NCBI GenBank assembly: GCA_043818335.1
Contig: JBDRFV010000019.1
Coordinates: 1 to 41,460, forward strand
Length of the DNA stretch: 41,460 nt
DNA from: Patescibacteria group bacterium
GTDB lineage: Bacteria > Patescibacteriota > Minisyncoccia > Phycocordibacterales > UBA9973
Direction of reading: 5' to 3'
The notes beneath the pieces are model-generated. The model searched no databases, was not told the origin of the DNA, and saw only the letters and a list, made by a program, of their open reading frames with translations. The translations under genes were made by a program, and so were the position numbers. This document shows positions 1-28,300 of this stretch, piece after piece; positions within the stretch are counted from its first letter, which is position 1; every line of letters starts with the position of its first letter.

Positions 1-1527
1 ATGAAATTAACAAAAACTGATTATTTAATATATAAAGACTGTGCTAAAAATGCTTGGTTGAAAATTCACAAGAAAGATATTTATTACGAAAAGCAGTTGT
101 CCGTTTTTGATCAAACCATAATAGAAACTGGAAATGAAGTAGATAAATTAGCACGGGATTTGTTTCCTAATGGAATTGAGGTAGAAGATAGAAATGATTT
201 TTCTGGTACGATGAAGTTGGTTGAAGCTAAAACACCTGTGATTTATCAGCCTGTTTTTGAGACTGATTTGTATAAAATTGTTTGTGATATTTTGGTTTGG
301 AACGAAAAGCAAGAAGTGTATGATTTATATGAAGTAAAAGCTTCTAATAGTGGTGAAAATAAAAAAGCAAAAGATGAATTATATAGTTATGATATAGCTT
401 TTCAGTATTTAGTTATGAAAGAATTAAACATGCCAATTGGTAGATTGAATTTAATTAGATTTAATAATGAATATATTAGAGGGGCTGAATTAGATTTAGA
501 AGAATTATTTATAAAAGAAGATTTTACGGAAAGAGTTTTTGAAATAAGAGATATCGTTGCTCACGAAATGGAAATTGCTCAGGATTTTTTATCTCAAGAA
601 AAAGAGCCATTTGGAAATTGTAAATGCATAACTCGTGGTAGAAGTTCGCATTGTACGACTTTTTCTTATTCAAATCCAAACGTGCCAGATTACAGTGTTC
701 ATGATATTTCACGAATTGGCATGTCTAAGAAAAAATTAGCAGAATTAATAGACAGCAGTATTTTTTTGATAGAAGACGTGCCAGAAGATTTTAAATTAAG
801 CGAAAAACAGAGAAATCAAGTTGAAGCTGTGCAATTAGATAAAGTTTATATAAATAAAGAAGAAATAAGAGAATTTATGAAAAATATAACTTTTCCAATT
901 TCTTTTTTAGATTATGAGACTTTTGCTGCTGGTGTGCCTAGGTTTGCTGGTTTTAGTCCTTTTAATCAAATAACTTTTCAGTTTTCTTTGCACATTTCTG
1001 AAGCCTCGCACGTGGCCGGACTACGGCCGAGGGATGAAAAAACAGAGCCAAGGCATGAAGAATTTATTTATACAGAAGATAAAAATCCAGATGAGCAGTT
1101 TGTTTTAGCTTTGAAAGAAAAATTACCAAATAGTGGAACCGTTATTGTTTGGAATAAAAGTTTTGAAATTGGTAGAAATAAAGATTTGGCAAAAAGAAAT
1201 CCTGAGTATAAAGATTTTCTTGATTCAATAAATACAAGAGTTATAGATCTAATGGATGTTTTTTCTGAACAGCATTATATTCACTCAAAATTTAAAGGAA
1301 AGACTTCTATAAAATATATTTTGCCGGTTCTTGCACCTGAATTGTCTTACAAAGTTTTAGATATTCAAGAAGGCGCGACTGCTTCGGATACTTGGAATAA
1401 AATTGTAAGTGATGAGTTTGATGAAAAAGAAAAGAAAGAAAAAATAGAAAGTTTGAAAACTTACTGCAAATTAGATACTTATGCAATGTATGCGATTTGG
1501 AAGCATTTAATTGATTTATTGGAATAA
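1..1527 (+). CDS. DUF2779-family protein (PD-(D/E)XK-like N-terminal module plus RNase H/exonuclease-like C-terminal module)
   Basis: 508-aa ORF. It has an N-terminal D...E-x-K-like block (CDILVW...YDLYEVKAS), a Cys cluster (CKCITRGRSSHC), then FLDYETF...PFNQITFQFSLH. This matches DUF2779 as I recall it; not searched. Confidence 0.7.
   Translation: MKLTKTDYLIYKDCAKNAWLKIHKKDIYYEKQLSVFDQTIIETGNEVDKLARDLFPNGIEVEDRNDFSGTMKLVEAKTPVIYQPVFETDLYKIVCDILVWNEKQEVYDLYEVKASNSGENKKAKDELYSYDIAFQYLVMKELNMPIGRLNLIRFNNEYIRGAELDLEELFIKEDFTERVFEIRDIVAHEMEIAQDFLSQEKEPFGNCKCITRGRSSHCTTFSYSNPNVPDYSVHDISRIGMSKKKLAELIDSSIFLIEDVPEDFKLSEKQRNQVEAVQLDKVYINKEEIREFMKNITFPISFLDYETFAAGVPRFAGFSPFNQITFQFSLHISEASHVAGLRPRDEKTEPRHEEFIYTEDKNPDEQFVLALKEKLPNSGTVIVWNKSFEIGRNKDLAKRNPEYKDFLDSINTRVIDLMDVFSEQHYIHSKFKGKTSIKYILPVLAPELSYKVLDIQEGATASDTWNKIVSDEFDEKEKKEKIESLKTYCKLDTYAMYAIWKHLIDLLE
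1003..1033. repeat. GC-rich hairpin element inserted in frame in the DUF2779 gene
   Basis: The sequence is GCCTCGCACGTGGCCGGACTACGGCCGAGGG. It contains CCTCG/CGAGG and GGCCG/CGGCC stems and is far more GC-rich than its flanks. It encodes ..EASHVAGLRPRD.. and shares CCTCG and CTACGG blocks with the elements at 21750 and 23020. Confidence 0.6.
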
Positions 1528-3579: not shown

Positions 3580-5769
<2,190 letters not shown>

Positions 5770-5771
5770 AA

Positions 5772-7664
5772 TTATTTTTTCTCTTCAATTTCTTTTTTTA
5801 GTTTTTCTATAAAATCTTTAATAGAAATATTTTCTAATTTTTCCCCGCCTGCATCAGCTGTGTTGAAAGCATTGCGGGCAGGAGTTCTAGTTTCTACTGT
5901 TAGTTTTTCAGATTCTTTTTCTTTATCACCAATTACTATTACATACGGAATTTTTTGCATTTTTGCAGTACGAATTTTTTTACCCAAAGATTCATTTGAA
6001 GAATCTAATTCTACTCTAATATTTTCATTTTTTAATTCTTTATAAATTTTTTCTGCATAATCAGTTTGTTTTTCACTTATTGGAAGAATTACAACTTGCA
6101 CAGGTGATAACCAAAGAGGGAAGGCGCCAGCATAATGCTCTATCAAAACTCCCATAAATCTTTCAAACGAACCAAGAATTGCAACATGGAGCACAACTAC
6201 GCGATGTTTTTTGCCGTCTTCGCCTGTATAGTCCATATTAAAATTTTCTGGCTGGTTGAAATCAAGTTGGATTGTAGTTAGTTGCCATTCTCTGCCGATA
6301 GAATCTCTGACTTTTATATCAATCTTTGGTCCATAAAAAGCAGCTTCGCCTTCTTTAATTTCAAAAGGTACACCCCATTTTTTTACTGATTCTTCCAAGA
6401 TAGCTTCAGCTTTTTCCCAAATTTCATCTTTTCCAAAATACGCTTTTTTATTTTTTTTATCTCTAACAGAAATTTCTACTTTATAATTATTGAAACCAAA
6501 AATTTCATAGGTTTCGCGCATTAGACCAAAAATCATTTCAATTTCTGATTCAATTTGGTCTTCAGTAACAAAATGGTGAGTATCATCTTGAGTTATATTT
6601 TTAACACGCAATAATCCAGACAATTCTCCACTTTTTTCATTTCTGTATACAGTTGTATTTTCAGCTATTCTATATGGAAGATCTTTGTAACTATGAAGCT
6701 CAGAATTATAAATTTCAAAATGATGCGGACAGTTCATTGCTTTCATTACAAATTCATCACCGTTTTCATCTTTCATAACTGGCATCATGGCGTCATATTT
6801 TCCCATGTGACCACTTTTTATATAAAGTTCTTTTTTTGCAATATGTGGAATTGTTACAAAAGAATATCCTAGCGCTTCTTTTCTTGAGTAAATAAATCTT
6901 TCTAGCTCGTTTTTTATTATATTTCCTTTTGGTAAAAGCATTGGCAGACCTTTTCCTACTAATTCAGAAATTGTGAATAATTTTAATTCTTTTCCCAATT
7001 TTTTATGATCTCGTTTTTCTGCTTCTTCGCGCATTTTTTCATAATCTTCTAATTCTTTTTTATTTTCAAAAGCTAAACCGTAAATTCTAGTTAGCATTTT
7101 ATTTTTTTCATCTCCACGCCAATATGCACCAGCAACTCTATCTAATTTAAAACTGTCTGGATTTATCTCTTTTGTAGGATTTTCAGAATGTCCACCTCGA
7201 CATAAATCAGTAAACCCCGCCTTTGACGGGGCAAGCTCTCCAAAAGTGTATAAAGTAATTTTTTCCCTAAACGCTTCTTTAGAAGCGTCGGGCGATCCAG
7301 CTTTGCTGGATTTAGCCTCTTTATCTTTTATCTCTTTTATTAATTCTGTTTTGTATTCATTATCAGCGAAATATTTTAGCGCTTCTTTTTGTGTTTTTTC
7401 TGAGACTTTAAAACTTTTCCAGCTTTTCAAAATTTCTCGCATTTTCTTTTCAATTTTTGGCAGATCTTTATCAGAAATAGGGGATTTAAAATCAAAATCA
7501 TAATAAAAGCCATTTTCAATAACTGGGCCGATAGTGACTTTAGTTTCTGGATATAAATTTATTACGGCAGTTGCTAAAAGATGCGCAAGTGTGTGTCTAA
7601 TATTGTGTAGTTTTTCATTTGTTTCCATAAGTTTAATAATATCATATTCTTTTGCTTTTTTCAT
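5772..7664 (-). CDS. thrS: threonine--tRNA ligase (no N-terminal TGS domain)
   Basis: It has the editing-domain HxxxH (HNIRHTLAHLLA), GPVIENGFYYDF, DLCRGGH, a class II core and an anticodon-binding C-terminus (PLWLSPVQVVILPIS). The protein starts directly at the editing domain. Confidence 0.95.
   Translation of the reverse strand: MKKAKEYDIIKLMETNEKLHNIRHTLAHLLATAVINLYPETKVTIGPVIENGFYYDFDFKSPISDKDLPKIEKKMREILKSWKSFKVSEKTQKEALKYFADNEYKTELIKEIKDKEAKSSKAGSPDASKEAFREKITLYTFGELAPSKAGFTDLCRGGHSENPTKEINPDSFKLDRVAGAYWRGDEKNKMLTRIYGLAFENKKELEDYEKMREEAEKRDHKKLGKELKLFTISELVGKGLPMLLPKGNIIKNELERFIYSRKEALGYSFVTIPHIAKKELYIKSGHMGKYDAMMPVMKDENGDEFVMKAMNCPHHFEIYNSELHSYKDLPYRIAENTTVYRNEKSGELSGLLRVKNITQDDTHHFVTEDQIESEIEMIFGLMRETYEIFGFNNYKVEISVRDKKNKKAYFGKDEIWEKAEAILEESVKKWGVPFEIKEGEAAFYGPKIDIKVRDSIGREWQLTTIQLDFNQPENFNMDYTGEDGKKHRVVVLHVAILGSFERFMGVLIEHYAGAFPLWLSPVQVVILPISEKQTDYAEKIYKELKNENIRVELDSSNESLGKKIRTAKMQKIPYVIVIGDKEKESEKLTVETRTPARNAFNTADAGGEKLENISIKDFIEKLKKEIEEKK
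7215..7236. repeat. GC-rich hairpin element in frame in thrS
   Basis: CCCCGCCTTTGACGGGGCAAGC has a CCCCG/CGGGG stem. On the minus strand it encodes the extra ..ELAPSKAG.. just before the conserved FTDLCRGGH. It shares GGGCAAGC with the elements at 22650 and 23020. Confidence 0.6.
7271..7311. repeat. Second GC-rich double-hairpin element in frame in thrS
   Basis: Two perfect 7-bp stems, ACGCTTC-TTTA-GAAGCGT and ATCCAGC-TTTG-CTGGAT, are joined by CGGGCG. It encodes ..SSKAGSPDASKEAF... Confidence 0.55.
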
Positions 7665-15810: not shown

Positions 15811-15900
15811 TCTCCTCCTTTTTGAGGAGGAGTGCCCGAAGGGCGAGGTGGTGATTTTAATTACCACCCCCAACCCCCTCCCTTGTTAAGGGGGAGGGGA
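15811..15900 (+). repeat. GC-rich multi-hairpin repeat, copy 1
   Basis: It contains four hairpin modules: CTCCTCC-TTTTT-GAGGAGGAG, GCCC-GAA-GGGC, GGTGGTGATTTTAATTACCACC and CCCCTCCC-TTGTTAA-GGGGGAGGGG. Blocks of 27 nt and 44 nt are identical to copy 2. Confidence 0.9.
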
Positions 15901-16356: not shown

Positions 16357-16453
16357 TCTCCTCCTTTTTGAGGAGGAGTGCCCTGAGCTTTGCGAAGGGC
16401 GAGGTGGTGATTTTAATTACCACCCCCAACCCCCTCCTTGAAAAGGAGGGGAG
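16357..16453 (+). repeat. GC-rich multi-hairpin repeat, copy 2
   Basis: It has the same modules as copy 1 in the same orientation. It carries a 10-nt indel (TGAGCTTTGC, 16384-16393) and a different terminal loop. Confidence 0.9.
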
Positions 16454-18969: not shown

Positions 18970-20952
18970 CTAAATTAAAATATAATCTATAGTTTTTCTT
19001 TCTAAATCAACGTCTTTAACTTTTATTTTTACTGTGTCTCCTATTTTATATCTTTTTTTATTTTTCTGTCCTACTAGTTCAAACTTTTTCTCATCAAAAC
19101 TATAAAAGTCATCTTTTAGATTTCTAAGCTGTATTAAACCTTCACATTTTGTTTCTTTTTCTTCTACATATATTCCCCATTTTGTAACACCACTTATTAT
19201 TCCATCAAAATTTTGACCAATTCTTTCTGACATATACTCTACCTGCTTGTATTTTATAGAAGCTCGTTCTGCGTCTGATGCTTTTTTTTCTTGTTCAGAA
19301 GATTTTTGTGAAATTTTTTGGTAGCTTTCTAATTTATCTTTTGTAATTTTTTTACCGGATAAATAATCTTGCAAAAATCTATGCACTACTATGTCTGGAT
19401 ATCTTCTAATGGGTGAAGTAAAATGTGTGTAATATGCAAAAGCTAAACCGTAATGTCCGATATTTTCAGTAGAATAAATTGCTTTTGCCATGGATCTAAT
19501 TACAGCTTTGCTGATAGTTTCTTGTTCGTTTTTACCTTTTAATTTTTCTAAAAGTTTATTTAATTCTTTTGGTGGGATTACACCGTTTTTCATTGGCAAA
19601 TTATGCCCCATGCCTTTTAGAAATAAAGTTAAATCATGCATTTTTTCTTTACTTGGCAAGTCGTGAACTCTGTATACAAAAATTCCTTCTTCTTGGCCCT
19701 TTTTTGTACCTTTTGAAATAAGTTCAGCTACTTTCTTATTAGCTAAAAGCATGAATTCTTCTATTAATCTATTAGAATCACCTCTGATTTTTTTTATAAC
19801 TTTAATCGGCTTTCCATCTTTATCTAAAACAAATTTTACCTCTTCTTGATCCAAAGACATTGCACCGTGCTCAAATCTTTCTTCTGTTAATTTTTTAGCT
19901 AGATTATTTAAAATAGCTAGTTCCTTGTGATAAGCTAACTTGTTATTTTTGATAGCATCTTCAGCTTCTTGATAAGTAAAACGTTTTGCTGAGTGTATTA
20001 CAGTTTTTCCAAACCATTCTGATTTTATTTTTGCATTTTTATCTAAAACAAAAACCGCGCTCATTGTTAGTCTGTCTTTATTTGGAACTAAAGAACACAA
20101 GTCATTAGAAAGTACTTCTGGAAGCATTGGAATTGTTCTGTCTACTAAATAAACAGAAGTCGTTCGCCCTTTTGCTTCTTTGTCTAATTCACTGCCAGGT
20201 TTTACATAATTAGAAACATCAGCAATATGTATGCCTATTTCATATTCACCACCCCCAACCCCCTCCTTAGAAGAGGAGGGGAGTTTTCGAAATGAAATAG
20301 CATCATCGAAATCTTTTGCGTCTTCTGGGTCAATAGTGAAAGTTAAGGTTTTTCTAAAATCTTTTCTATTTTTATAATCTTCTGAACTTATACCGTTTTC
20401 TTTTATAATTTTTGCTTCTTTTTCTGCAGATTCAGATAAGGAATTGTCGAAACCTTTTTCAAGTGCAATAGCGTGCATTTCGGTTTCATTTTCTCCAGGA
20501 TTTCCAATTATTTTTTTTACTTCCCCGATTGGATTTCCTTGACTGTCTTTCCAAGAAATTATTTTCACAAAAACTTTCTGTCCAATTTCTGCATTATTTA
20601 ATTTATTTGGATCAATAAAAATATCAGCATACATTTTTATGTCATCTGGAACTAAAAATATATTTTTTTCTATTTTTTTTAAAACCCCAACAAAGCCATT
20701 TTTTGCTCGGGAAATTATATTCACAACTTTTCCAATTTCGCGACCACGTTTTTTGGAAAGCAATTCTATTTTTACTAAATCGCCATTTAATGCAGTATTA
20801 AGATGATTAGAATCAATTTCTATATCTATTTCTTTATTTTCTAAAGTTACATAGCCCATTCCTTTGCTATTTACAGAAATAACCCCTTCGAGTTTTTGCC
20901 TGCTGTTTTTGTTGGTTTTGTTTTTATTATTAGTTTTTTTCTTTTTTGCCAT
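18970..20952 (-). CDS. rnr: ribonuclease R
   Basis: It has the RNB core (DPEDAKDFDDAISF, HIADVSNYV, YLVDRTIPMLPE, HYGLAFAYYTHFTSPIRRYPD), a C-terminal S1 domain and a Lys-rich N-terminus. Confidence 0.9.
   Translation of the reverse strand: MAKKKKTNNKNKTNKNSRQKLEGVISVNSKGMGYVTLENKEIDIEIDSNHLNTALNGDLVKIELLSKKRGREIGKVVNIISRAKNGFVGVLKKIEKNIFLVPDDIKMYADIFIDPNKLNNAEIGQKVFVKIISWKDSQGNPIGEVKKIIGNPGENETEMHAIALEKGFDNSLSESAEKEAKIIKENGISSEDYKNRKDFRKTLTFTIDPEDAKDFDDAISFRKLPSSSKEGVGGGEYEIGIHIADVSNYVKPGSELDKEAKGRTTSVYLVDRTIPMLPEVLSNDLCSLVPNKDRLTMSAVFVLDKNAKIKSEWFGKTVIHSAKRFTYQEAEDAIKNNKLAYHKELAILNNLAKKLTEERFEHGAMSLDQEEVKFVLDKDGKPIKVIKKIRGDSNRLIEEFMLLANKKVAELISKGTKKGQEEGIFVYRVHDLPSKEKMHDLTLFLKGMGHNLPMKNGVIPPKELNKLLEKLKGKNEQETISKAVIRSMAKAIYSTENIGHYGLAFAYYTHFTSPIRRYPDIVVHRFLQDYLSGKKITKDKLESYQKISQKSSEQEKKASDAERASIKYKQVEYMSERIGQNFDGIISGVTKWGIYVEEKETKCEGLIQLRNLKDDFYSFDEKKFELVGQKNKKRYKIGDTVKIKVKDVDLERKTIDYILI
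20247..20283. repeat. copy of the intergenic repeat's terminal module, in frame inside rnr
   Basis: CACCACCCCCAACCCCCTCCTTAGAAGAGGAGGGGAG compares with ACCACCCCCAACCCCCTCCTTGAAAAGGAGGGGAG at 16419-16453. On the minus strand it encodes ..PSSSKEGVGGGE... Confidence 0.85.
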
Positions 20953-21413: not shown

Positions 21414-21734
21414 ATGCAAGATGCTGACAAAGTATTCCTAGAATACGTAGTGAAAGCTCTCGTTGATAATCCGAACGATGTTGTTATCGATCGTACTGTC
21501 GATGAAATGGGTGTTCTCATAAGTCTAACTGTGAACCCAGCTGATATGGGAAAAATCATAGGAAGAATGGGAAACACTGCAAAAGCTATCAGAACTCTTC
21601 TTCGCGTAATTGGTATGAAGAATAACGCTCGCGTTAATCTAAAAATCAATGAACCAGAAGGAAGTACAAGACCAGCTCCAAGCGCTTCAACACAAACTGT
21701 TGATCAAGCTATGGAAGATTTGAAAGGAATTTAA
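21414..21734 (+). CDS. khpA: KH-domain RNA-binding protein (YlqC/KhpA-like)
   Basis: The KH GxxG motif is IGRMGNTAKAIR. It sits directly after rpsP, as in the conserved rpsP-KH-rimM-trmD cluster. Confidence 0.8.
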   Translation: MQDADKVFLEYVVKALVDNPNDVVIDRTVDEMGVLISLTVNPADMGKIIGRMGNTAKAIRTLLRVIGMKNNARVNLKINEPEGSTRPAPSASTQTVDQAMEDLKGI

Positions 21735-21749
21735 ATTAAAGAATTTTAA

Positions 21750-21776
21750 CCCTCGGGCATAGCCCACGGGCGAGCC
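21750..21776. repeat. GC-rich element (CCCTCGG...ACGGGCNAG family)
   Basis: CCCTCGGGCATAGCCCACGGGCGAGCC aligns at about 20/27 with the trmD-internal element at 23020. Confidence 0.65.
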
Positions 21777-21782
21777 AAAAAG

Positions 21783-21808
21783 ACTCAGACTTGTTCTGGG
21801 TTTTTTTG
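21783..21808 (+). terminator. rho-independent terminator
   Basis: ACTCAGA-CTTGT-TCTGGGT (one G-U pair) is followed by T7. Confidence 0.75.
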
Positions 21809-21843
21809 TTTGACTAAATATCTAATAAATGGTATTCTAAAGA

Positions 21844-21863
21844 AAAATTGTTGAACCTTTAAA
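21844..21863 (+). promoter_or_regulatory. conserved 20-nt 5' motif, copy 1
   Basis: AAAATTGTTGAACCTTTAAA ends exactly 10 nt before the ATG at 21874. Confidence 0.5.
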
Positions 21864-21873
21864 TTTTAATATT

Positions 21874-22200
21874 ATGAGTAGCACAGCAGACTGTATTCCG
21901 ACTTTTGCAACAAAAGAATTAAATTCCATGTTTGGAAAAATAAGTGAAAGTGCAGATCATGGAAAAGATCCCAGAACCCACTTCCTTTGGGAAGATTTTT
22001 TGAAAGATCTAAAAAAATATCACCACCGAAAGATAGGTGGAATACTTTTATTTCGTTTCAAACCAAAAACAGCACCAGATGCTTTAGGAGAAAATTCTTT
22101 CGCATTCATGCTGGTTCCCAGAAAAATTACTCCTACCCTTTTACAAAAAGAGATTAAGAAACACATAGGGAAGAGAATCTGTGATTTTATTTCTTTTTAA
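21874..22200 (+). CDS. hypothetical protein
   Basis: 108-aa ORF. No family recognised. Confidence 0.5.
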   Translation: MSSTADCIPTFATKELNSMFGKISESADHGKDPRTHFLWEDFLKDLKKYHHRKIGGILLFRFKPKTAPDALGENSFAFMLVPRKITPTLLQKEIKKHIGKRICDFISF

Positions 22201-22210
22201 TTTAATGTAG

Positions 22211-22230
22211 AAAATTGTTTAACCTTTAAA
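22211..22230 (+). promoter_or_regulatory. conserved 20-nt 5' motif, copy 2
   Basis: AAAATTGTTTAACCTTTAAA is 19/20 identical to copy 1 and ends exactly 10 nt before the ATG at 22241. Confidence 0.5.
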
Positions 22231-22240
22231 ACTTATCAAT

Positions 22241-22549
22241 ATGCCGATGCCTATTATTTCTTTATTAAAAAATCGCAAAGAGCGTAGTTTTTCTGAGAAA
22301 GCGGAAAAGTACGGTTTGATTAAAGGTACTTATATCAAGATAACGAAAGTTAAAGTTAAGAATAAGCTTTCGTATGATGTTGGACTTGGAGATTCAATAA
22401 GTGGTCTCATTTCTTATTGGTTAGAGTTTGGACACCCGATTCATTTTTCTCCAAATGGTCAAACCAGTGGTGTTATAAAAATTTTCAAGAAAAAAGAAAA
22501 AATATATATCGAGACTGAAAATTCGGTTTACGAAGTAATTTTTTTTTAA
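22241..22549 (+). CDS. hypothetical protein
   Basis: 102-aa ORF followed by a terminator. No family recognised. Confidence 0.5.
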   Translation: MPMPIISLLKNRKERSFSEKAEKYGLIKGTYIKITKVKVKNKLSYDVGLGDSISGLISYWLEFGHPIHFSPNGQTSGVIKIFKKKEKIYIETENSVYEVIFF

Positions 22550-22566
22550 AAATTCTTGTATTTTTT

Positions 22567-22592
22567 AGGCTTCTAAAAGAGGCCTTTTTTAT
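22567..22592 (+). terminator. rho-independent terminator
   Basis: AGGCTTC-TAAAA-GAGGCCT is followed by T6. Confidence 0.75.
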
Positions 22593-22649
22593 TTGCATTT
22601 ATGTCTTAAAATTTATACACTAAATCTGTTATGTATTTCCACATAATTA

Positions 22650-22680
22650 CCCTCCTTCGCCTAAGCTTCGTAGGGCAAGC
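22650..22680. repeat. GC-rich element 8 nt upstream of the trmD start
   Basis: CCCTCCTTCGCCTAAGCTTCGTAGGGCAAGC has a CCTA..TAGG stem. It shares the CCCTC and GGGCAAG blocks with 23020 and 7215. Confidence 0.6.
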
Positions 22681-22688
22681 AATTTTTT

Positions 22689-23387
22689 ATGATAAAATTT
22701 CACATTATTACTATATTCCCAGATATGTTCAACTCTTATTTGAATGAGTCTATTATTGGGCGGGCGATTAAGAATAAAAAAATATCTGTTAAATTCTATA
22801 ATCCACGAGATTTTATAAAAAATAATAAAAATAAAACTGGTTACAAACCTGTTGATGATAAACCATACAGTGGCGGACCGGGAATGGTGATGAAAGCTGA
22901 GCCGATTTTGAAAGCAGTAGAAAAAGCTGTTAGTAAAATAAAAAATAAAAAGAAAATTTTAATTATAAATTTTGTGCCCAGTGCTGAAAAATTTACTACT
23001 GATTTCGCGAAAAAAGTTTCCCTCGGCCATGGCTCTACGGGCAAGGCTAAAAAATATACTGATATTATTTTAATCTGTGGCAGATATGAGGGGATAGATG
23101 CGCGAGTTGATAAAATTTTGAAAACAAAAAAAATATCTATTGGTGATTATGTTCTGACTGGTGGGGAAATTCCAGCGATGATTTTGGTTGATTGCATTTC
23201 TCGGCAGATTAAAGGCGTTTTGGGTAAATATGAAAGTTTAGAAGAAGAGAGAATTTCTAGTAGTGAAGTTTACACACGACCAGAAATTTTAAAATATAAA
23301 AATAAGAATTATAAAGTGCCTAAAGTTTTATTGTCTGGGCATCACAAAAATATAGAGAATTGGAAGAAAAATGAAAAACGAAACTAA
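22689..23387 (+). CDS. trmD: tRNA (guanine37-N1)-methyltransferase
   Basis: Motifs IITIFPDMF, DDKPYSGGPGMVM, CGRYEGIDARV and GDYVLTGGEIPAM. Confidence 0.92.
   Translation: MIKFHIITIFPDMFNSYLNESIIGRAIKNKKISVKFYNPRDFIKNNKNKTGYKPVDDKPYSGGPGMVMKAEPILKAVEKAVSKIKNKKKILIINFVPSAEKFTTDFAKKVSLGHGSTGKAKKYTDIILICGRYEGIDARVDKILKTKKISIGDYVLTGGEIPAMILVDCISRQIKGVLGKYESLEEERISSSEVYTRPEILKYKNKNYKVPKVLLSGHHKNIENWKKNEKRN
23020..23047. repeat. GC-rich element in frame in trmD
   Basis: CCCTCGGCCATGGCTCTACGGGCAAGGC encodes the extra ..SLGHGSTGKA.. just before the conserved ILICGRYEGID. Confidence 0.65.
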
Positions 23388-25116
23388 AAATTGTCAAAAT
23401 TGCAAAAAAGATTTTGTTATTGAGCAAGAGGATTTTGATTTTTATGAAAAAATAAAAGTTCCAGCGCCGACTTTTTGTCCGGAATGTAGATTGATAAGGA
23501 GAATGATGACATTTAATGTCAGAAATTTATATAACAGAAATTGTGATAATTGTGGTAAAAAAATGGTTTCTATTTTTAATCCTAGCGCTCCGTACAAAGT
23601 TTGGTGTTTTGACTGTTATTTTTCAGATAAATTTGACCCGTCTTCTTATTATGTAGATTATGATTTTTCAATAGATTTTTTTACTCAATATGAGAATTTT
23701 AGAAGGAATATTCCTTTACTTTGTATGGAACAATCGGGTAATAACAGTGGTGGATGCGAATATGCAAATTATACTTATGGAAGTAAAAACATATATCTTT
23801 CACACAATGTAGCTAAATCAGAAGATGTCTATTATTCAGTATTTGTGAACAGAGACAACAGAATGTGTTTTGATTCTCTAAGTTTTAGAGAGGACGAACT
23901 TTGTTATGAAGTTGTCGATTCTAACCATAATTATCATTGTTCCTACCTGACTAGATCAGATTCGTGTATTGATTCAATGTTTCTTTTTAACTGCGTGAAC
24001 TGCCAGAATTGCTTTATGTCTTCTAACCAGAGGAATCAAAATTATGTTTTTGGGAATAAAAAACTTTCAAAAACTGAATATGAAAAAGCTATAAAAAAAG
24101 AAAATTTAGCGTCTTTTTCTTCGTTGAAAAGGTTAACAGAAGAATATGAACAATTAATGAAAGATACAGTTGTTGTTTTTGCTAAATTGGTAAATGCTGT
24201 AAATTGTACCGGAGATATCATAGAAAATTCCAAAAATTGTCTTTCTTGTTTTTATATTTGGGGTTCAGAAAATATTCGCTATATTTTTTATTCTGTTAAT
24301 GCTTTAAAAGATTCTTATGACATGCTTGATTCTGGACGAGGAGAACGAATGTATGAATCTATTTGTAGTGGGCGAGGGAATTATGAAATTGCTTTTTGTG
24401 CTCGTACTTTTAATACGATGCAAACATACTATTGTGAAGGGTGCATTGATTTAAAAAATGCTTTTGGTTGCATTGGATTAAGAAAAAAACAGTATTGTAT
24501 TTTAAACAAGCAATACTCTAAAGAGGAATATTTTATTTTGTTAGAAAAAATAAAAAAACAAATGGAAGAAATGCCATATATTGATAAAAATAATTGTACA
24601 TATAAATTTGGAGAATTTTTTCCTGCTGAAATTTCTCCTTTTGCTTACAACGAAACAATGGCTTTTGAACAATTTCCATTATCAAAAGAAGAAATTCTTA
24701 AAAAAAATTATAGATGGTTTGATGATGCAGATAGGAACTATGATGCGACGTTAGATAGTAAAAATATTCCGGATGGTATTTCTGATGTGACGGATGAGAT
24801 TTTAAAAGAAACTATTAGTTGTGAACATGGAGGTTTATGTAATCATCAATGTACAAAAGCATTTCGTATCGTTCCAGTAGAATTGCAATTTTATAAACGT
24901 ATGAATTTGCCATTACCGAGGGCTTGTCCGAATTGCCGTTATTTTGTTAGATTAAAAAGGTCGTTGCCGTGGAGATTGTGGCATAGAGTTTGTATGTGTG
25001 AAAATGGGAATCATAATCACAAAGGAAAATGTCAGGTTGAATTTGAAACGCCATATTCTCCAGATAGATCTGAAATATTGTATTGCAAACAATGTTATCA
25101 AAAAGAATTTTTATAG
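23371..25116 (+). CDS. Cys-rich protein with zinc-ribbon modules at both termini (hypothetical)
   Basis: 581 aa, overlapping the trmD 3' end by 17 nt. The N-terminal CQNCKKDFVIEQEDFDFYEKIKVPAPTFCPECR and the C-terminal CTKAFRIVPVELQFYKRMNLPLPRACPNCR are copies of one module. The centre holds repeated Cys-containing short repeats. Confidence 0.7.
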   Translation: MKNETKNCQNCKKDFVIEQEDFDFYEKIKVPAPTFCPECRLIRRMMTFNVRNLYNRNCDNCGKKMVSIFNPSAPYKVWCFDCYFSDKFDPSSYYVDYDFSIDFFTQYENFRRNIPLLCMEQSGNNSGGCEYANYTYGSKNIYLSHNVAKSEDVYYSVFVNRDNRMCFDSLSFREDELCYEVVDSNHNYHCSYLTRSDSCIDSMFLFNCVNCQNCFMSSNQRNQNYVFGNKKLSKTEYEKAIKKENLASFSSLKRLTEEYEQLMKDTVVVFAKLVNAVNCTGDIIENSKNCLSCFYIWGSENIRYIFYSVNALKDSYDMLDSGRGERMYESICSGRGNYEIAFCARTFNTMQTYYCEGCIDLKNAFGCIGLRKKQYCILNKQYSKEEYFILLEKIKKQMEEMPYIDKNNCTYKFGEFFPAEISPFAYNETMAFEQFPLSKEEILKKNYRWFDDADRNYDATLDSKNIPDGISDVTDEILKETISCEHGGLCNHQCTKAFRIVPVELQFYKRMNLPLPRACPNCRYFVRLKRSLPWRLWHRVCMCENGNHNHKGKCQVEFETPYSPDRSEILYCKQCYQKEFL

Positions 25117-25341: not shown

Positions 25342-28300
25342 ATGCACAAAGAAACAAAACGTCCTAAGAAGTATTTTTCTAGATATAAGAAGCCGCTAAT
25401 AGAATTTCCTAATTTAATAGAGTCGCAATTAAAATCTTTTGAATGGTTAGTTGAATCTGGCATAAAAGAAGTTTTGAAAGAATTTTCTCCAATAGAAGAT
25501 TATTCTGGAAAAAAGTTTCAGCTTGATTTAACTTCTTTTTCTGTTGAAGAACCAAAGCATGATGAAAATTCTGCAAAAATAAATAAAACTTCTTATCAAG
25601 GACTTTTAAAAATTCGTGTAAAGCTAACAAATAAAATTTTAGGAACTGTTAAAGATCAGGAGATTTTTATGTCTGAACTTCCTTTAATGACTTCGCATGG
25701 AACTTTTATAATAAACGGAGTAGAACGTGTGATAGTTCCACAGCTTGCTCGTTCTTTCGGTGTATTTTTTACAGAGTCTGAAAATAAAGGAAAAAGATTT
25801 TTTGGCGCAAAAGTTATTCCAGCTCGTGGGGTTTGGATTGAAATAGAATCAGAAGCTGATGGTGCAATTTATGTTCGTATAGATAAAAAAAGAAAATTCC
25901 CAGTAATTTCTCTATTTCGTGCGATGGGATATTTAAAAGATGAAGAAATTTTAAAAGAATTTTCCGCCAAAGGCGGATCCGCCTCCGGTGGAAAAGGTAA
26001 TTATGAAGAAATAATAAATATATGTTTAGCTAAAGATTCTGCTAAAACTCCAGCAGATTCTTATGTTGAAATATATAAAAGATTAAGAGACGGTGATATG
26101 GCTACAGCAGACAATGCTAAGGAATTTATTAATTCTTTATTTACTTCAGAAAGATATGATTTATCTCCAGTTGGTAGATTTAGATTTAATAAAAGATTTG
26201 AGAAATCAATGGAAGAAGTTGAGTTAGCTCGTCGTACTATTTCTAAAGAAGATTTAGTTAGTATTATAAAAAACATTATTGATTCTAATAATAATCCAGA
26301 TACAAGAGCTGATGATATAGATCACTTGGGACAAAGAAGAGTTCGTTTTGTTGGAGAAATGCTTCAACAAAAAATCAGAACCGGAATTATGCAGATTAAA
26401 AGAAATATTCAAGATAGAATGTCTATTATTGATGTTGATACTGCAATGCCAATTCAGATTATTAATCAAAGACCATTGCAAGCAAGAATAAAAGAATTTT
26501 TTACTACAAATCAACTTTCGCAGTTTATGGCACAGGAAAATGTGCTTTATGAAATGGAACATTTAAGAACTCTTTCAGCTCTTGGGCCAGGAGGTTTAAC
26601 TCGTGAAAGAGCAGGTCTTGAAGTTCGTGACGTGCATCCTTCTCATTACGGAAGAGTTTGTCCAATTCATACTCCAGAAGGACCAAATATTGGACTTATT
26701 TTGCATTTGGCTACTTATGCGAAAATAAATGATTTTGGGATTATTGAAACGCCTTATGTAAAAGTAAAAAACGGTAAAATTACTGGAGAAGTTCAGTATT
26801 TAAATGCACTTGAAGAAGAAAAATATAATATTACTCATGCTGGTATCTCTTATGATAAAAATGGAAAAATAACAGACGAAAGAGTTCCAGCTAGAATAAA
26901 AACTGAACCTGGGATGATTTCTAAAGAAGAAGTTGATTTTATAGATGTTGCTGCTAATCAGGCATTTTCTATCGCAACTTCTATGATTCCGTTTTTAGAA
27001 CACAATGACGCGAATAGAGCATTGATGGGATCAAATATGCAGAAGCAAGCTGTTCCATGTGTTCTTACAGAGATGCCACTTGTTGCTACTGGAATGGAAG
27101 AACTTACAGCTCGTGATTCAGGAAGATTAGTAATTGCACAAGAAGATGGTGTTGTTTCTTATATAGACGCTAAAAAGATTATAGTAAAAGGTAAAAAAGA
27201 GAAAACCTATGATTTAATTAATTTTTTAAGAAATAATAATTTTTCTGCTTTTCATCAACGTCCAATTGTTAATATGGGTGATAAAATTAAAAAGGGAGAT
27301 GTGATAGCTGATACTTCAAGTACTGTGGATGGACAGATTTCTATTGGACAAAATGCTTTTGTTGCTTTTCTATCTTGGTCTGGATCTAATTATGAAGATG
27401 CTATTATTGTTTCTGAAAGACTAGTAAAAAACAGTAAATTTACTTCTATATATTTAGAAGAATTTATTTGTGCAGTTCGTGATACAAAACTTGGACCAGA
27501 AATTACTACTCGTGATATTCCAAATGTTGGAGAATTAAAATTAAAAGATTTAGATGAAGATGGAATAATCCGTATTGGAGCAGAAGTTAGAGAGAATGAT
27601 ATTTTAGTTGGTAAAATTACACCAAAAGGTGAAACAGAATTAACACCAGAAGAAAGATTACTCAGATCTATTTTTGCGGAAAAAGCTCGTGACGTAAAAG
27701 ATACTTCATTAAGAATGGAGCATGGAAAACGCGGGCGTATTATTGGTGTAAAGATTTTTTCTCGTGATTTGGGGCATAGCCTAGAAGTTGGAATTATTAA
27801 AAAAATTATTATAGAAGTTGCACAGATAAGAAATATTTCAGTTGGAGATAAATTGTCAGGACGTCATGGAAATAAAGGTGTTATCTCGACTGTTTTACCA
27901 GAAGAAGATATGCCATACATGGCAGATGGAACACCGATAGATATTATACTTTCACCACTTGGTGTGCCTTCTCGTATGAACTTGGGACAGATTTTAGAGA
28001 TACATTTGGGCTTGGCTGCTGAGAAATTAGGCTATCAAGCTATTGTGCCATCTTTCTTGGGTGCGACTCATGACGAGATAAAAGAAGAATTAAAGAAAGC
28101 TGGAGTTCCAGAAAACGGAAGAGTAAAACTTTTTGATGGAAGAACTGGAGAAGATTTTAAACAAGATGTTGCAGTTGGTTGTATGTATATGTTAAAACTT
28201 CACCATATGGTTGAAGATAAAATACATATGCGTTCTATTGGGCCATATTCTCTTATTACACAGCAACCGCTTGGAGGTAAAGCTCAAGGTGGAGGTCAGA

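Follow-up and report, generated by a model that had tools for sequence, protein, structure and literature searches.

Rickettsia palindromic elements (RPEs), said to have been described by Ogata et al. in 2000 and 2002, are reportedly about 100–150 bp long, lie in frame in essential protein genes and are confined to Rickettsia. We know of no transposase for them. Here we analyse a stretch of 41,460 nucleotides (the window; contig JBDRFV010000019.1 of assembly GCA_043818335.1, our contig C19) from a Patescibacteria bacterium, in which short GC-rich patches lie around and inside the gene trmD. The reading that we favour, with a probability of about 0.6, is that these patches are independent insertions of two related families, A and B, of a non-autonomous GC-rich mini-element, most likely a selfish, trans-mobilised mini-hairpin. 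Like the RPEs, family A would be a selfish palindromic repeat of a small AT-rich genome that sits in frame in essential genes and is translated as an extra segment (surface segments in the RPEs), and in-frame insertions facing insert-free orthologues are found in trmD and at ten other coding sites. It differs from them in its length of 27–31 nt, its occurrence in Patescibacteria, its T-C landing site and its tie to cassettes of tRNA fragments and GIY-YIG genes.

The GC clusters of very AT-rich yeast mitochondrial genomes are GC-rich hairpin units of 30–45 nt (e.g. GC42; Wu and Hao 2015, PMC4478555), and family A resembles them in that copy number is patchy, units merge and nest, substitutions are tolerated mostly in loops, a target duplication is putative and would be very short, resident endonucleases are suspected of helping, and recombination of the flanks would transfer the units. 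In contrast to these mostly intergenic clusters of an organelle, family A resides in a bacterium, is ~80% intragenic and has a length tuned to multiples of three. By analogy, we place it provisionally among elements of the RPE and GC-cluster kind, to which the coding palindromes of Nematomorpha mitochondria add another near published kind (PMC6649704). A different likeness is offered by Ssn, a family of nucleases with a single GIY-YIG domain, which bind single-stranded DNA, cleave it and are found beside a dispersed hairpin repeat of ~28 nt, the NTS, which clusters around genes in hundreds of copies and for which no in-frame insertions are reported (Chenal et al. 2025, PMC11893778). Family A is likewise a dispersed, oriented repeat of ~28 nt, with a short hairpin and non-palindromic tails, found near single-domain GIY-YIG genes (~80–95 aa), and the pair may work like Ssn, which we do not offer as a claim of membership. 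Repetitive extragenic palindromic (REP) elements are GC-rich as well, being short, imperfect palindromes that carry the tetranucleotide GTAG (Di Nocera et al. 2013, PMC3733652); family A is neither extragenic nor head-tagged, nor did a search of the source genome find a gene for a REP-associated tyrosine transposase (RAYT) to accompany it. Compared with miniature inverted-repeat transposable elements, family A has 5-nt arms (CCTCG/CGAGG) and a duplication of at most 1 nt, and no autonomous relative was found. RAYT genes are the usual company of REPs. Full-text literature searches returned no description of such elements in Patescibacteria.

Two related families of GC-rich patches

The source genome (G000) is a metagenome-assembled genome (MAG) of 563 kb in 57 contigs, with 31% GC and a completeness of 82%. 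A scan for GC-rich islands yields 311 patches of several families, about one per 1.9 kb. Four patches that a sequence-only reading of the window had picked out are all present where it placed them. The copies at 21750..21776 (CCCTCGGGCATAGCCCACGGGCGAGCC) and 23020..23047 (CCCTCGGCCATGGCTCTACGGGCAAGGC), both on the forward strand, belong to family A, TCCCTCGGSCRTAGCCCTACGGGCGAGSC, with the consensus (T)CCCTCGGSCRTAGNCCTACGGGCGAGSC. The former, in the khpA 3′ untranslated region, is of variant A2 (GGGC...GAGCC), 27 nt long with a loop one base short (nhmmer E=3e-4), and the latter, read in frame in trmD as (S)LGHGSTGKA, is of variant A1 (GGCC...AAGGC; E=9e-7); their similarity, put at about 20/27 in the earlier reading, comes to 21 of 28 columns with one gap when aligned by hand. 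The related insert suspected near the left end of the window proves to be a 31-nt long variant of family A, CCCTCGGCCGTAGTCCGGCCACGTGCGAGGC, on the reverse strand at 1003..1033, in frame in a DUF2779 gene (Pfam DUF2779 E=2e-36) and read as ASHVAGLRPRD. Of the three copies that had been assigned to one sub-family, only those at 21750 and 23020 belong together. The third, CCCTCCTTCGCCTAAGCTTCGTAGGGCAAGC at 22650..22680 on the forward strand, 8 nt upstream of the trmD ATG, represents a sister family B (CCCTCCTTCGCC..TAGGGCAAGC) that shares with A only the end blocks CCCTC... and ...GGGCRAG, the B form being CCCTCCTTCGCC...ACGGGCRAG. The genome has at least five further B copies, at C3:187, C7:3044, C8:2929 and C32:15984, with one more in C43.

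The similarity among family A copies is far beyond chance. A fixed-spacing pattern matches nothing in G000, because the spacing varies, so a fuzzy two-block pattern and an nhmmer profile built from 34 copies were used instead. The fuzzy pattern has 19 matches in the genome and none in each of ten third-order Markov simulations; the profile has 22 matches on 12 contigs, 18 of them at E<0.05, and none in the reversed genome. A genome-wide profile scan had been proposed as the check that could undo the claim by returning chance-level scores, and it returned at least 18 significant loci. The profile does not detect the B copy at 22650. The 7-mer CCCTCGG occurs 27 times against 4.5 expected and is the most over-represented among 7-mers with at least 25 occurrences. 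A chance resemblance, or an artefact of assembly or binning, is therefore a reading to which we attach next to no weight: although the genome is a fragmented MAG whose contigs C4 and C23 end inside tandem copies, the zero-match controls refute it, and a 28-mer form of the element recurs in 113 stretches of independently assembled genomes.

The family A core, CCTCGGSCRTAGNCCTACGGGCGAGS, is 26 nt long (29 nt in the long variant), has a C on each side and forms an imperfect palindrome with the 5-nt arms CCTCG/CGAGG. Pair counts over the 34 copies show no covariation along the full-length palindrome, with 12–13 unpaired cells at two pairs, and the full-length palindrome was rejected as the conserved structure. 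A short helix that pairs positions 7–9 with 26–28 does show covariation in the same copies: pair 8:27 is CG in 18, GC in nine, UG in three, GU in one, UA in one and other in two, a score that none of 500 shuffles reaches, and in 82 copies of other genomes, where both positions were free as C or G, 56 are C-G, 26 are G-C and none is mismatched. This helix is probably maintained by compensatory change, and a folded single strand probably matters for the spread of the element. In predicted folding only the long 31-nt variant stands out (z=−3.3); the B copy at 22650 has no significant fold (z=+0.4), and Rfam holds no match for family A.

Empty sites, target and reading frame

The copy in trmD is an exact net insertion of 27 nt, encoding LGHGSTGKA, that splits a TCT serine codon and is absent from 19 TrmD genes of the same genus. 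Where the nearest relative reads AAA GTT TCT AAA AAA, the source genome reads AAA GTT TC[C CTC GGC CAT GGC TCT ACG GGC AAG GC]T AAA AAA, and the empty site is AAAGTTTCTAAAAAA. The 21750 copy has no counterpart in the khpA-trmD spacers of ten same-genus genomes, and the orthologous sites of 12 further A and B copies are empty in close relatives in 12 of 12 cases. The coding inserts measure 27, 27, 27, 30, 30, 33, 33, 36, 57, 57 and 66 nt, all multiples of three, so that comparison with these relatives demonstrates both insertion and preservation of the frame. The inserts of 57, 57 and 66 nt are nested pairs; self-nesting is likewise demonstrated by composites in which one copy has entered another, either at the apex of its hairpin or next to the CTA/TAG of its stem. 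At four family B sites elsewhere in the genome, inserts of 36, 31, 33 and 30 nt are absent from relatives.

Unambiguous empty sites (trmD, tRNA-Glu, tRNA-Gln, tRNA-Ile and C13:516) consist of a single C preceded by T, and the filled sites read C-core-C. The unit thus appears to be the 26-nt (or 29-nt) core plus one duplicated or microhomologous C, giving a net gain of 27 or 30 nt, and the T-C dinucleotide appears as the landing site of family A; T occupies position −1 in 32 of 47 copies against a background of 35%. Such a target bears on an alternative in which the patches are REP-like or IS200/IS605-like elements that a Y1 (HUH) transposase (RAYT/TnpA) would move in single-stranded form, its gene lying on another replicon or in the 18% of the genome that is missing from the assembly. 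The small size, high GC content, imperfect palindrome and internal (C)GTAG of the element recall the GTAG-tagged REPs (PMC3733652), a duplication never longer than 1 nt at the short specific target T-C recalls IS200/IS605, and the one helix kept by compensatory change counts in favour as well. Against this, G000 has no match to Y1_Tnp (PF01797) in a search that was positive in six of 14 control genomes, GTAG is central in family A, ~80% of copies are intragenic where REPs are extragenic, and copies are single where REPINs are paired; we consider a Y1 transposase an unlikely mover. In REPs the GTAG heads the stem, and REPINs are inverted REP pairs.

Coding sequence is the usual home of the element. 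The 28-nt form lies inside open reading frames (ORFs) of at least 120 aa in 66 of 82 copies of other genomes (~80%), and 11 of 19 copies of the source genome are in long ORFs; none of seven copies of the 27-nt form, which has lost one loop base and adds a net 26 nt, lies inside a long ORF. Of the four frames that are open, a single one, xLGHSPTGEA, accounts for about 45 of the 66 coding copies and is also the one in which trmD reads its copy; the reverse frame ASPVGLWPRE accounts for about 13. Selection on the translated peptide best explains this bias, from which translation itself is deduced, and coding insertions would survive by being read as a loop of 9–10 residues rich in Gly, Ser, Pro and Thr. 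Among the essential enzymes that host it are TrmD, MurC and proteins resembling AlaRS and thioredoxin reductase. When TrmD is aligned to solved structures of the enzyme, the insert comes directly ahead of the conserved LILVCGRYEGID stretch and faces a part of the solved chain that is gapped and aligns poorly; from the topology of TrmD we take this site to be a surface-exposed helix-to-strand loop. The strong bias to one reading frame and to the sense orientation, together with the position of the 21750 copy in a 3′ untranslated region and of the 22650 copy in a 5′ leader, is what a module selected by each host gene for its benefit, as a hairpin for RNA stability or termination or as a useful protein loop, would predict. 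Nevertheless, proteins that are unrelated to one another carry the same sequence, which also lies in intergenic DNA and dead tRNA fragments and occurs in either orientation; most orthologues lack it, Rfam has no match for it and it folds weakly, and a benefit to the host seems to us very improbable as its cause.

In trmD of congeners (L004, L009, L012, L013, L019, L005, L006 and L020), other in-frame inserts, each specific to a lineage, stand at no fewer than five different positions; examples are PARNAYSIAVAGGALQ, VASKVSSGPQFGARPARKLSS, LRQAQDKF, GRASKDGARHDFA and PFDKTQGKD. The gene appears to have been struck repeatedly by different insert families.

The comparison set comprised 61 same-genus genomes, 300 other genomes of the order and a collection of species-representative genomes. 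An exact two-block pattern, which finds nothing in reversed sequence, occurs in 17 of the 61 congeners, at 0–13 copies each, and in 13 of the 300 others, which fall in 12 other genera. In the species-representative genomes, a 28-mer with four two-fold degenerate positions matches 113 stretches, against a calculated chance expectation well below one. Most of the titles listed are those of Patescibacteria lineages (Nomura-, Adler-, Kaiser-, Giovannoni-, Staskawicz- and Uhrbacteria, Paceibacterota and groups like these), and the same list holds unnamed MAGs and automatically labelled third-party annotation (TPA) assemblies, a few of them titled Gammaproteobacteria. No copy was found in the viral contigs searched. 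A patchy spread across lineages is thus demonstrated by direct matching of sequences. Some insertions are common to sister species at orthologous sites, and others, such as that in trmD, are unique; at three orthologous sites the element was compared with its flanks for conservation, a comparison in which the search pattern itself had fixed 16 of 28 positions. Because the distribution is patchy, sites are both shared and unique, and copies nest, family A is best described as a probable long-term resident that would still move occasionally and cross lineage boundaries.

The near-identity of copies across distant lineages of the candidate phyla radiation (CPR) could also mean that family A is a signal for DNA uptake or transformation, like the Neisseria DNA uptake sequence (DUS) or NTS, which would be preferentially taken up, protected or processed and then recombined into homologous genes. 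Orthologous insertions common to species fit the spread of alleles by recombination, and family A associates with genes for single-domain GIY-YIG proteins, and proteins of this class act on NTS and influence transformation (PMC11893778). Family A, however, consists of clean insertions of 27–30 nt at 1–22 copies per genome, against hundreds for NTS, and biased uptake leaves the first arrival at a new site unexplained. Uptake signals are 9–12 nt long, arise by point substitution and reach larger copy numbers. We judge it improbable that uptake accounts for the family, at about the same level as a Y1 transposase, and return to a mini-element that inserts.

tRNA fragments and GIY-YIG genes

Fragments that comprise the 5′ part of a tRNA gene repeatedly contain family A, and the copy invariably lies in the D-arm, at ..GTC|TAA.. 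or ..TTC|AGT... At C44:5592-6012 of the source genome (locus L051, 1400-1820), nucleotides 1–12 of a tRNA-Gln are followed by a family A copy, nucleotides 13–27 of the tRNA-Gln, a 79-aa GIY-YIG gene (Pfam GIY-YIG E=2e-16) and an intact tRNA-Gln(CUG). The same cassette layout, with other hairpin families, is found at tRNA-Ile UAU (C20:700-1180), tRNA-Ser UGA (C54:3890-4290) and tRNA-Tyr (C43:24940-25360). Six GIY-YIG genes are present in the genome, four of them tRNA-linked, and in all four tRNA-linked cassettes a GC hairpin of one family or another interrupts the tRNA fragment, as in congeners; recurrence as a plug of tRNA fragments is accordingly demonstrated by the layout of these loci. The nearest solved relatives of the CPR mini GIY-YIG proteins are UPF0213 proteins.

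Mini-cassettes without an ORF occur in tandem before tRNA-Glu(CUC) (C36:327-531, 64-nt units) and before tRNA-Ile(GAU) (C4:1-186 and C23:1-131, 62-nt units), each unit consisting of a tRNA 5′ piece, a family A copy, a D-arm piece and ~15–20 nt of AT-rich DNA. Contigs C4 and C23 end within the tandem array. If insertion took place repeatedly and restored its target each time, the tandem arrangement would be explained. A reading of these tandems as CRISPR arrays was rejected, the “spacers” being mutually identical and made of tRNA 5′ pieces and upstream DNA. Single ORF-less units stand at tRNA-Gln and tRNA-Glu in two further genomes (G017 and G004).

In four unrelated CPR genomes family A lies within 100 nt of a GIY-YIG gene, in one of them with a duplicated target that is not a tRNA; this amounts to four of 82 copies against ~0.4 expected, a ~10-fold excess. 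Five cassettes in all combine family A with a GIY-YIG gene no more than 100 nt away, most copies being solo and most GIY-YIG genes having other hairpins. The spare tRNA fragments total ~100 nt and hold five or six plugs, against about one GC island per 1.9 kb genome-wide, a density which argues that the tRNA/GIY-YIG link is not neutral accumulation.

Small GIY-YIG genes beside tRNA genes have a precedent in the free-standing GIY-YIG homing endonucleases of T-even phages, such as SegB in the tRNA gene cluster of T4, and copying of the homing type would explain the duplicated tRNA 5′ parts. To our knowledge, the Seg genes have no hairpin plug, no split tRNA fragment and no dispersed mini-element derivatives. 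For the selfish mini-hairpin that we favour, we propose that an enzyme acting in trans copies the unit into single-stranded DNA or into breaks left by a nuclease, a role for which the mini GIY-YIG nucleases would be the best candidate by analogy with the Ssn nucleases and their hairpin repeats, and that insertion alleles would then pass between genomes through recombination of the flanks. The link of family A to the mini GIY-YIG nucleases is suggestive but unproven. A further step, which we entertain as a tentative and rather doubtful possibility, is that family A and its sister GC-hairpin families are working partners of the tRNA-dwelling mini GIY-YIG nucleases. In such a partnership the nuclease would nick or cut T-C where single strands are exposed, in its tRNA target as well as in look-alikes such as TTTC|TAAA in trmD, and the hairpin unit would be copied into the break, so that one kind of event would plug the spare tRNA fragment, protect the cassette and scatter loops of 9–10 residues through essential Patescibacteria proteins. 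If true, this would be a nuclease-plus-hairpin mobile system of an undescribed kind.

Several observations weigh against these proposals. A GIY-YIG gene is present in 52 of 61 genomes of the genus and is thus common without family A; genomes with family A have 3.2 GIY-YIG copies and those without it 1.7, only a ~2-fold difference in which kinship is ignored; and different cassettes carry different hairpin families, no one-to-one pairing of nuclease and hairpin being apparent. The published search sequence of the Ssn-related motif (SRM), HGTCWY..RNCYNB, has no match in G000, and family A does not fit it. As regards the hairpin, the covariation comes from essentially one column pair in two main sub-lineages, and the copies at 21750 and 23020 fold no better than shuffled sequences (z=−0.66 and −0.67). 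The 1-nt “duplication” at the target is indistinguishable from microhomology or from an element that includes one terminal C.

A DUF559 nuclease was considered as partner and rejected, since 11 of the 17 genomes that have family A encode one and so do 26 of the 44 that lack it, which is no association. Some DUF559 domains lie inside stop-free frames of ~980–1130 aa (G068:C11:4163-4477, G050:C8:3616-3927, G042:C23:2348-2695 and G010:C43:3745-4092), which suggests that large host genes contain in-frame nuclease domains. Another kind of mini GIY-YIG gene has no adjoining tRNA (C54:4688-4960 of the source genome; L053, L054, L056, L060, L061 and L062) and is bracketed by inverted repeats of 13–17 nt, for example AGTCCCGTTAGAG ... 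CTCTAACGGGA, or ACCCYGTTAAATGATTT ... TTATTTAAYRGGGT.

The khpA-trmD neighbourhood and its wider meaning

Three of the copies lie in a region that also holds rpsP, khpA (21414..21734, forward strand; Pfam KH_KhpA-B E=2e-20), a KH-domain protein gene, and trmD (22689..23387, forward strand; Pfam tRNA_m1G_MT E=7e-39), rpsP being confirmed by Pfam as well. The sequence-only reading took this for a rearranged ribosomal-protein/trmD cluster and suggested that copies mark the breakpoints. Instead, the order of the genus, rnr | rpsP-khpA-trmD-rpoB-rpoC, is kept here as in ten congeners, and what is particular to the source genome is inserted genes: two small ORFs after the khpA terminator and a 581-aa ORF after trmD. 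The breakpoint idea is weakly supported: the 21750 copy lies before the khpA terminator and upstream of the junction, neither an A nor a B copy stands at the borders of the 581-aa gene, and only the B copy at 22650, 8 nt before the trmD ATG, is near the junction. Nor does the grouping of copies within 1.3 kb call for a special cause, as 22 copies in 563 kb predict ~1.1 such pairs of family A, which is about chance. The khpA-trmD spacer measures 47–126 nt in eight of the ten congeners; in G022 and G012 it holds unrelated cargo of 1.0–1.8 kb without A or B elements (L028:2950-4707 and L030:3766-4761). With cargo in these two and in the source genome, the spacer is a hot spot for accessory genes, of which the elements are not the boundary markers.

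A terminator-like hairpin with a T-run follows khpA at 21781..21809 on the forward strand; read by eye, it is conserved in congeners, with the counterpart aaaaaactcaRaNNNNtctgagttttttgtttgc in G023 and G010, and a simple terminator scan did not call it. The two lineage-specific small ORFs, of 108 and 102 aa (21874..22549, forward strand), belong to no Pfam family and have no counterpart in this spacer of the ten congeners; the terminator scan places a terminator-like site after them, at 22567-22585. Each is preceded by a promoter-like block: a similar stretch, aaaattgttKaacctttaaaWtt, occurs at 21840-21876 and 22207-22243 and ends a few bases before the ATG of each small ORF. The two blocks look like a duplicated promoter for transcripts that would be leaderless or have a short leader. 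The 581-aa ORF (23371..25116, forward strand) between trmD and rpoB is Cys-rich and lineage-specific, has CxxC pairs with weak treble-clef zinc-finger matches only, overlaps the end of trmD by 17 nt and is absent from the ten congeners, where rpoB comes straight after trmD. GC-rich patches of different families lie elsewhere in the window at 5476-5528, 7213-7241, 7285-7309, 15822-15899, 16378-16404, 20247-20270 (inside an RNase R-like ORF, 18970-20952) and 25962-25997, and several of them end in GGGCGAG or GGGGCAAG, as family A does. The sequence-only reading assigns others of these patches to gyrB, thrS and rpoB.

For those who work with such genomes, the element matters in that it breaks assemblies, contigs ending in its arrays, and the lineage-specific indels it leaves confuse orthology and protein-structure comparison. 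At the same time, it can serve to trace with precision how uncultured lineages have recently exchanged DNA. That it recurs in tRNA/GIY-YIG cassettes opens a way, amenable to testing, towards the enzyme that would move it, a question shared with the RPEs of Rickettsia and the GC clusters of yeast mitochondria. CPR bacterial genomes are ~90% coding. That such gene-dense, very small genomes tolerate a mobile element that would add loops to essential enzymes is what the copy in trmD and its counterparts point to: a unit of 26 or 29 nt with one duplicated base would be frame-neutral by construction, a simple route to persistence for selfish DNA.

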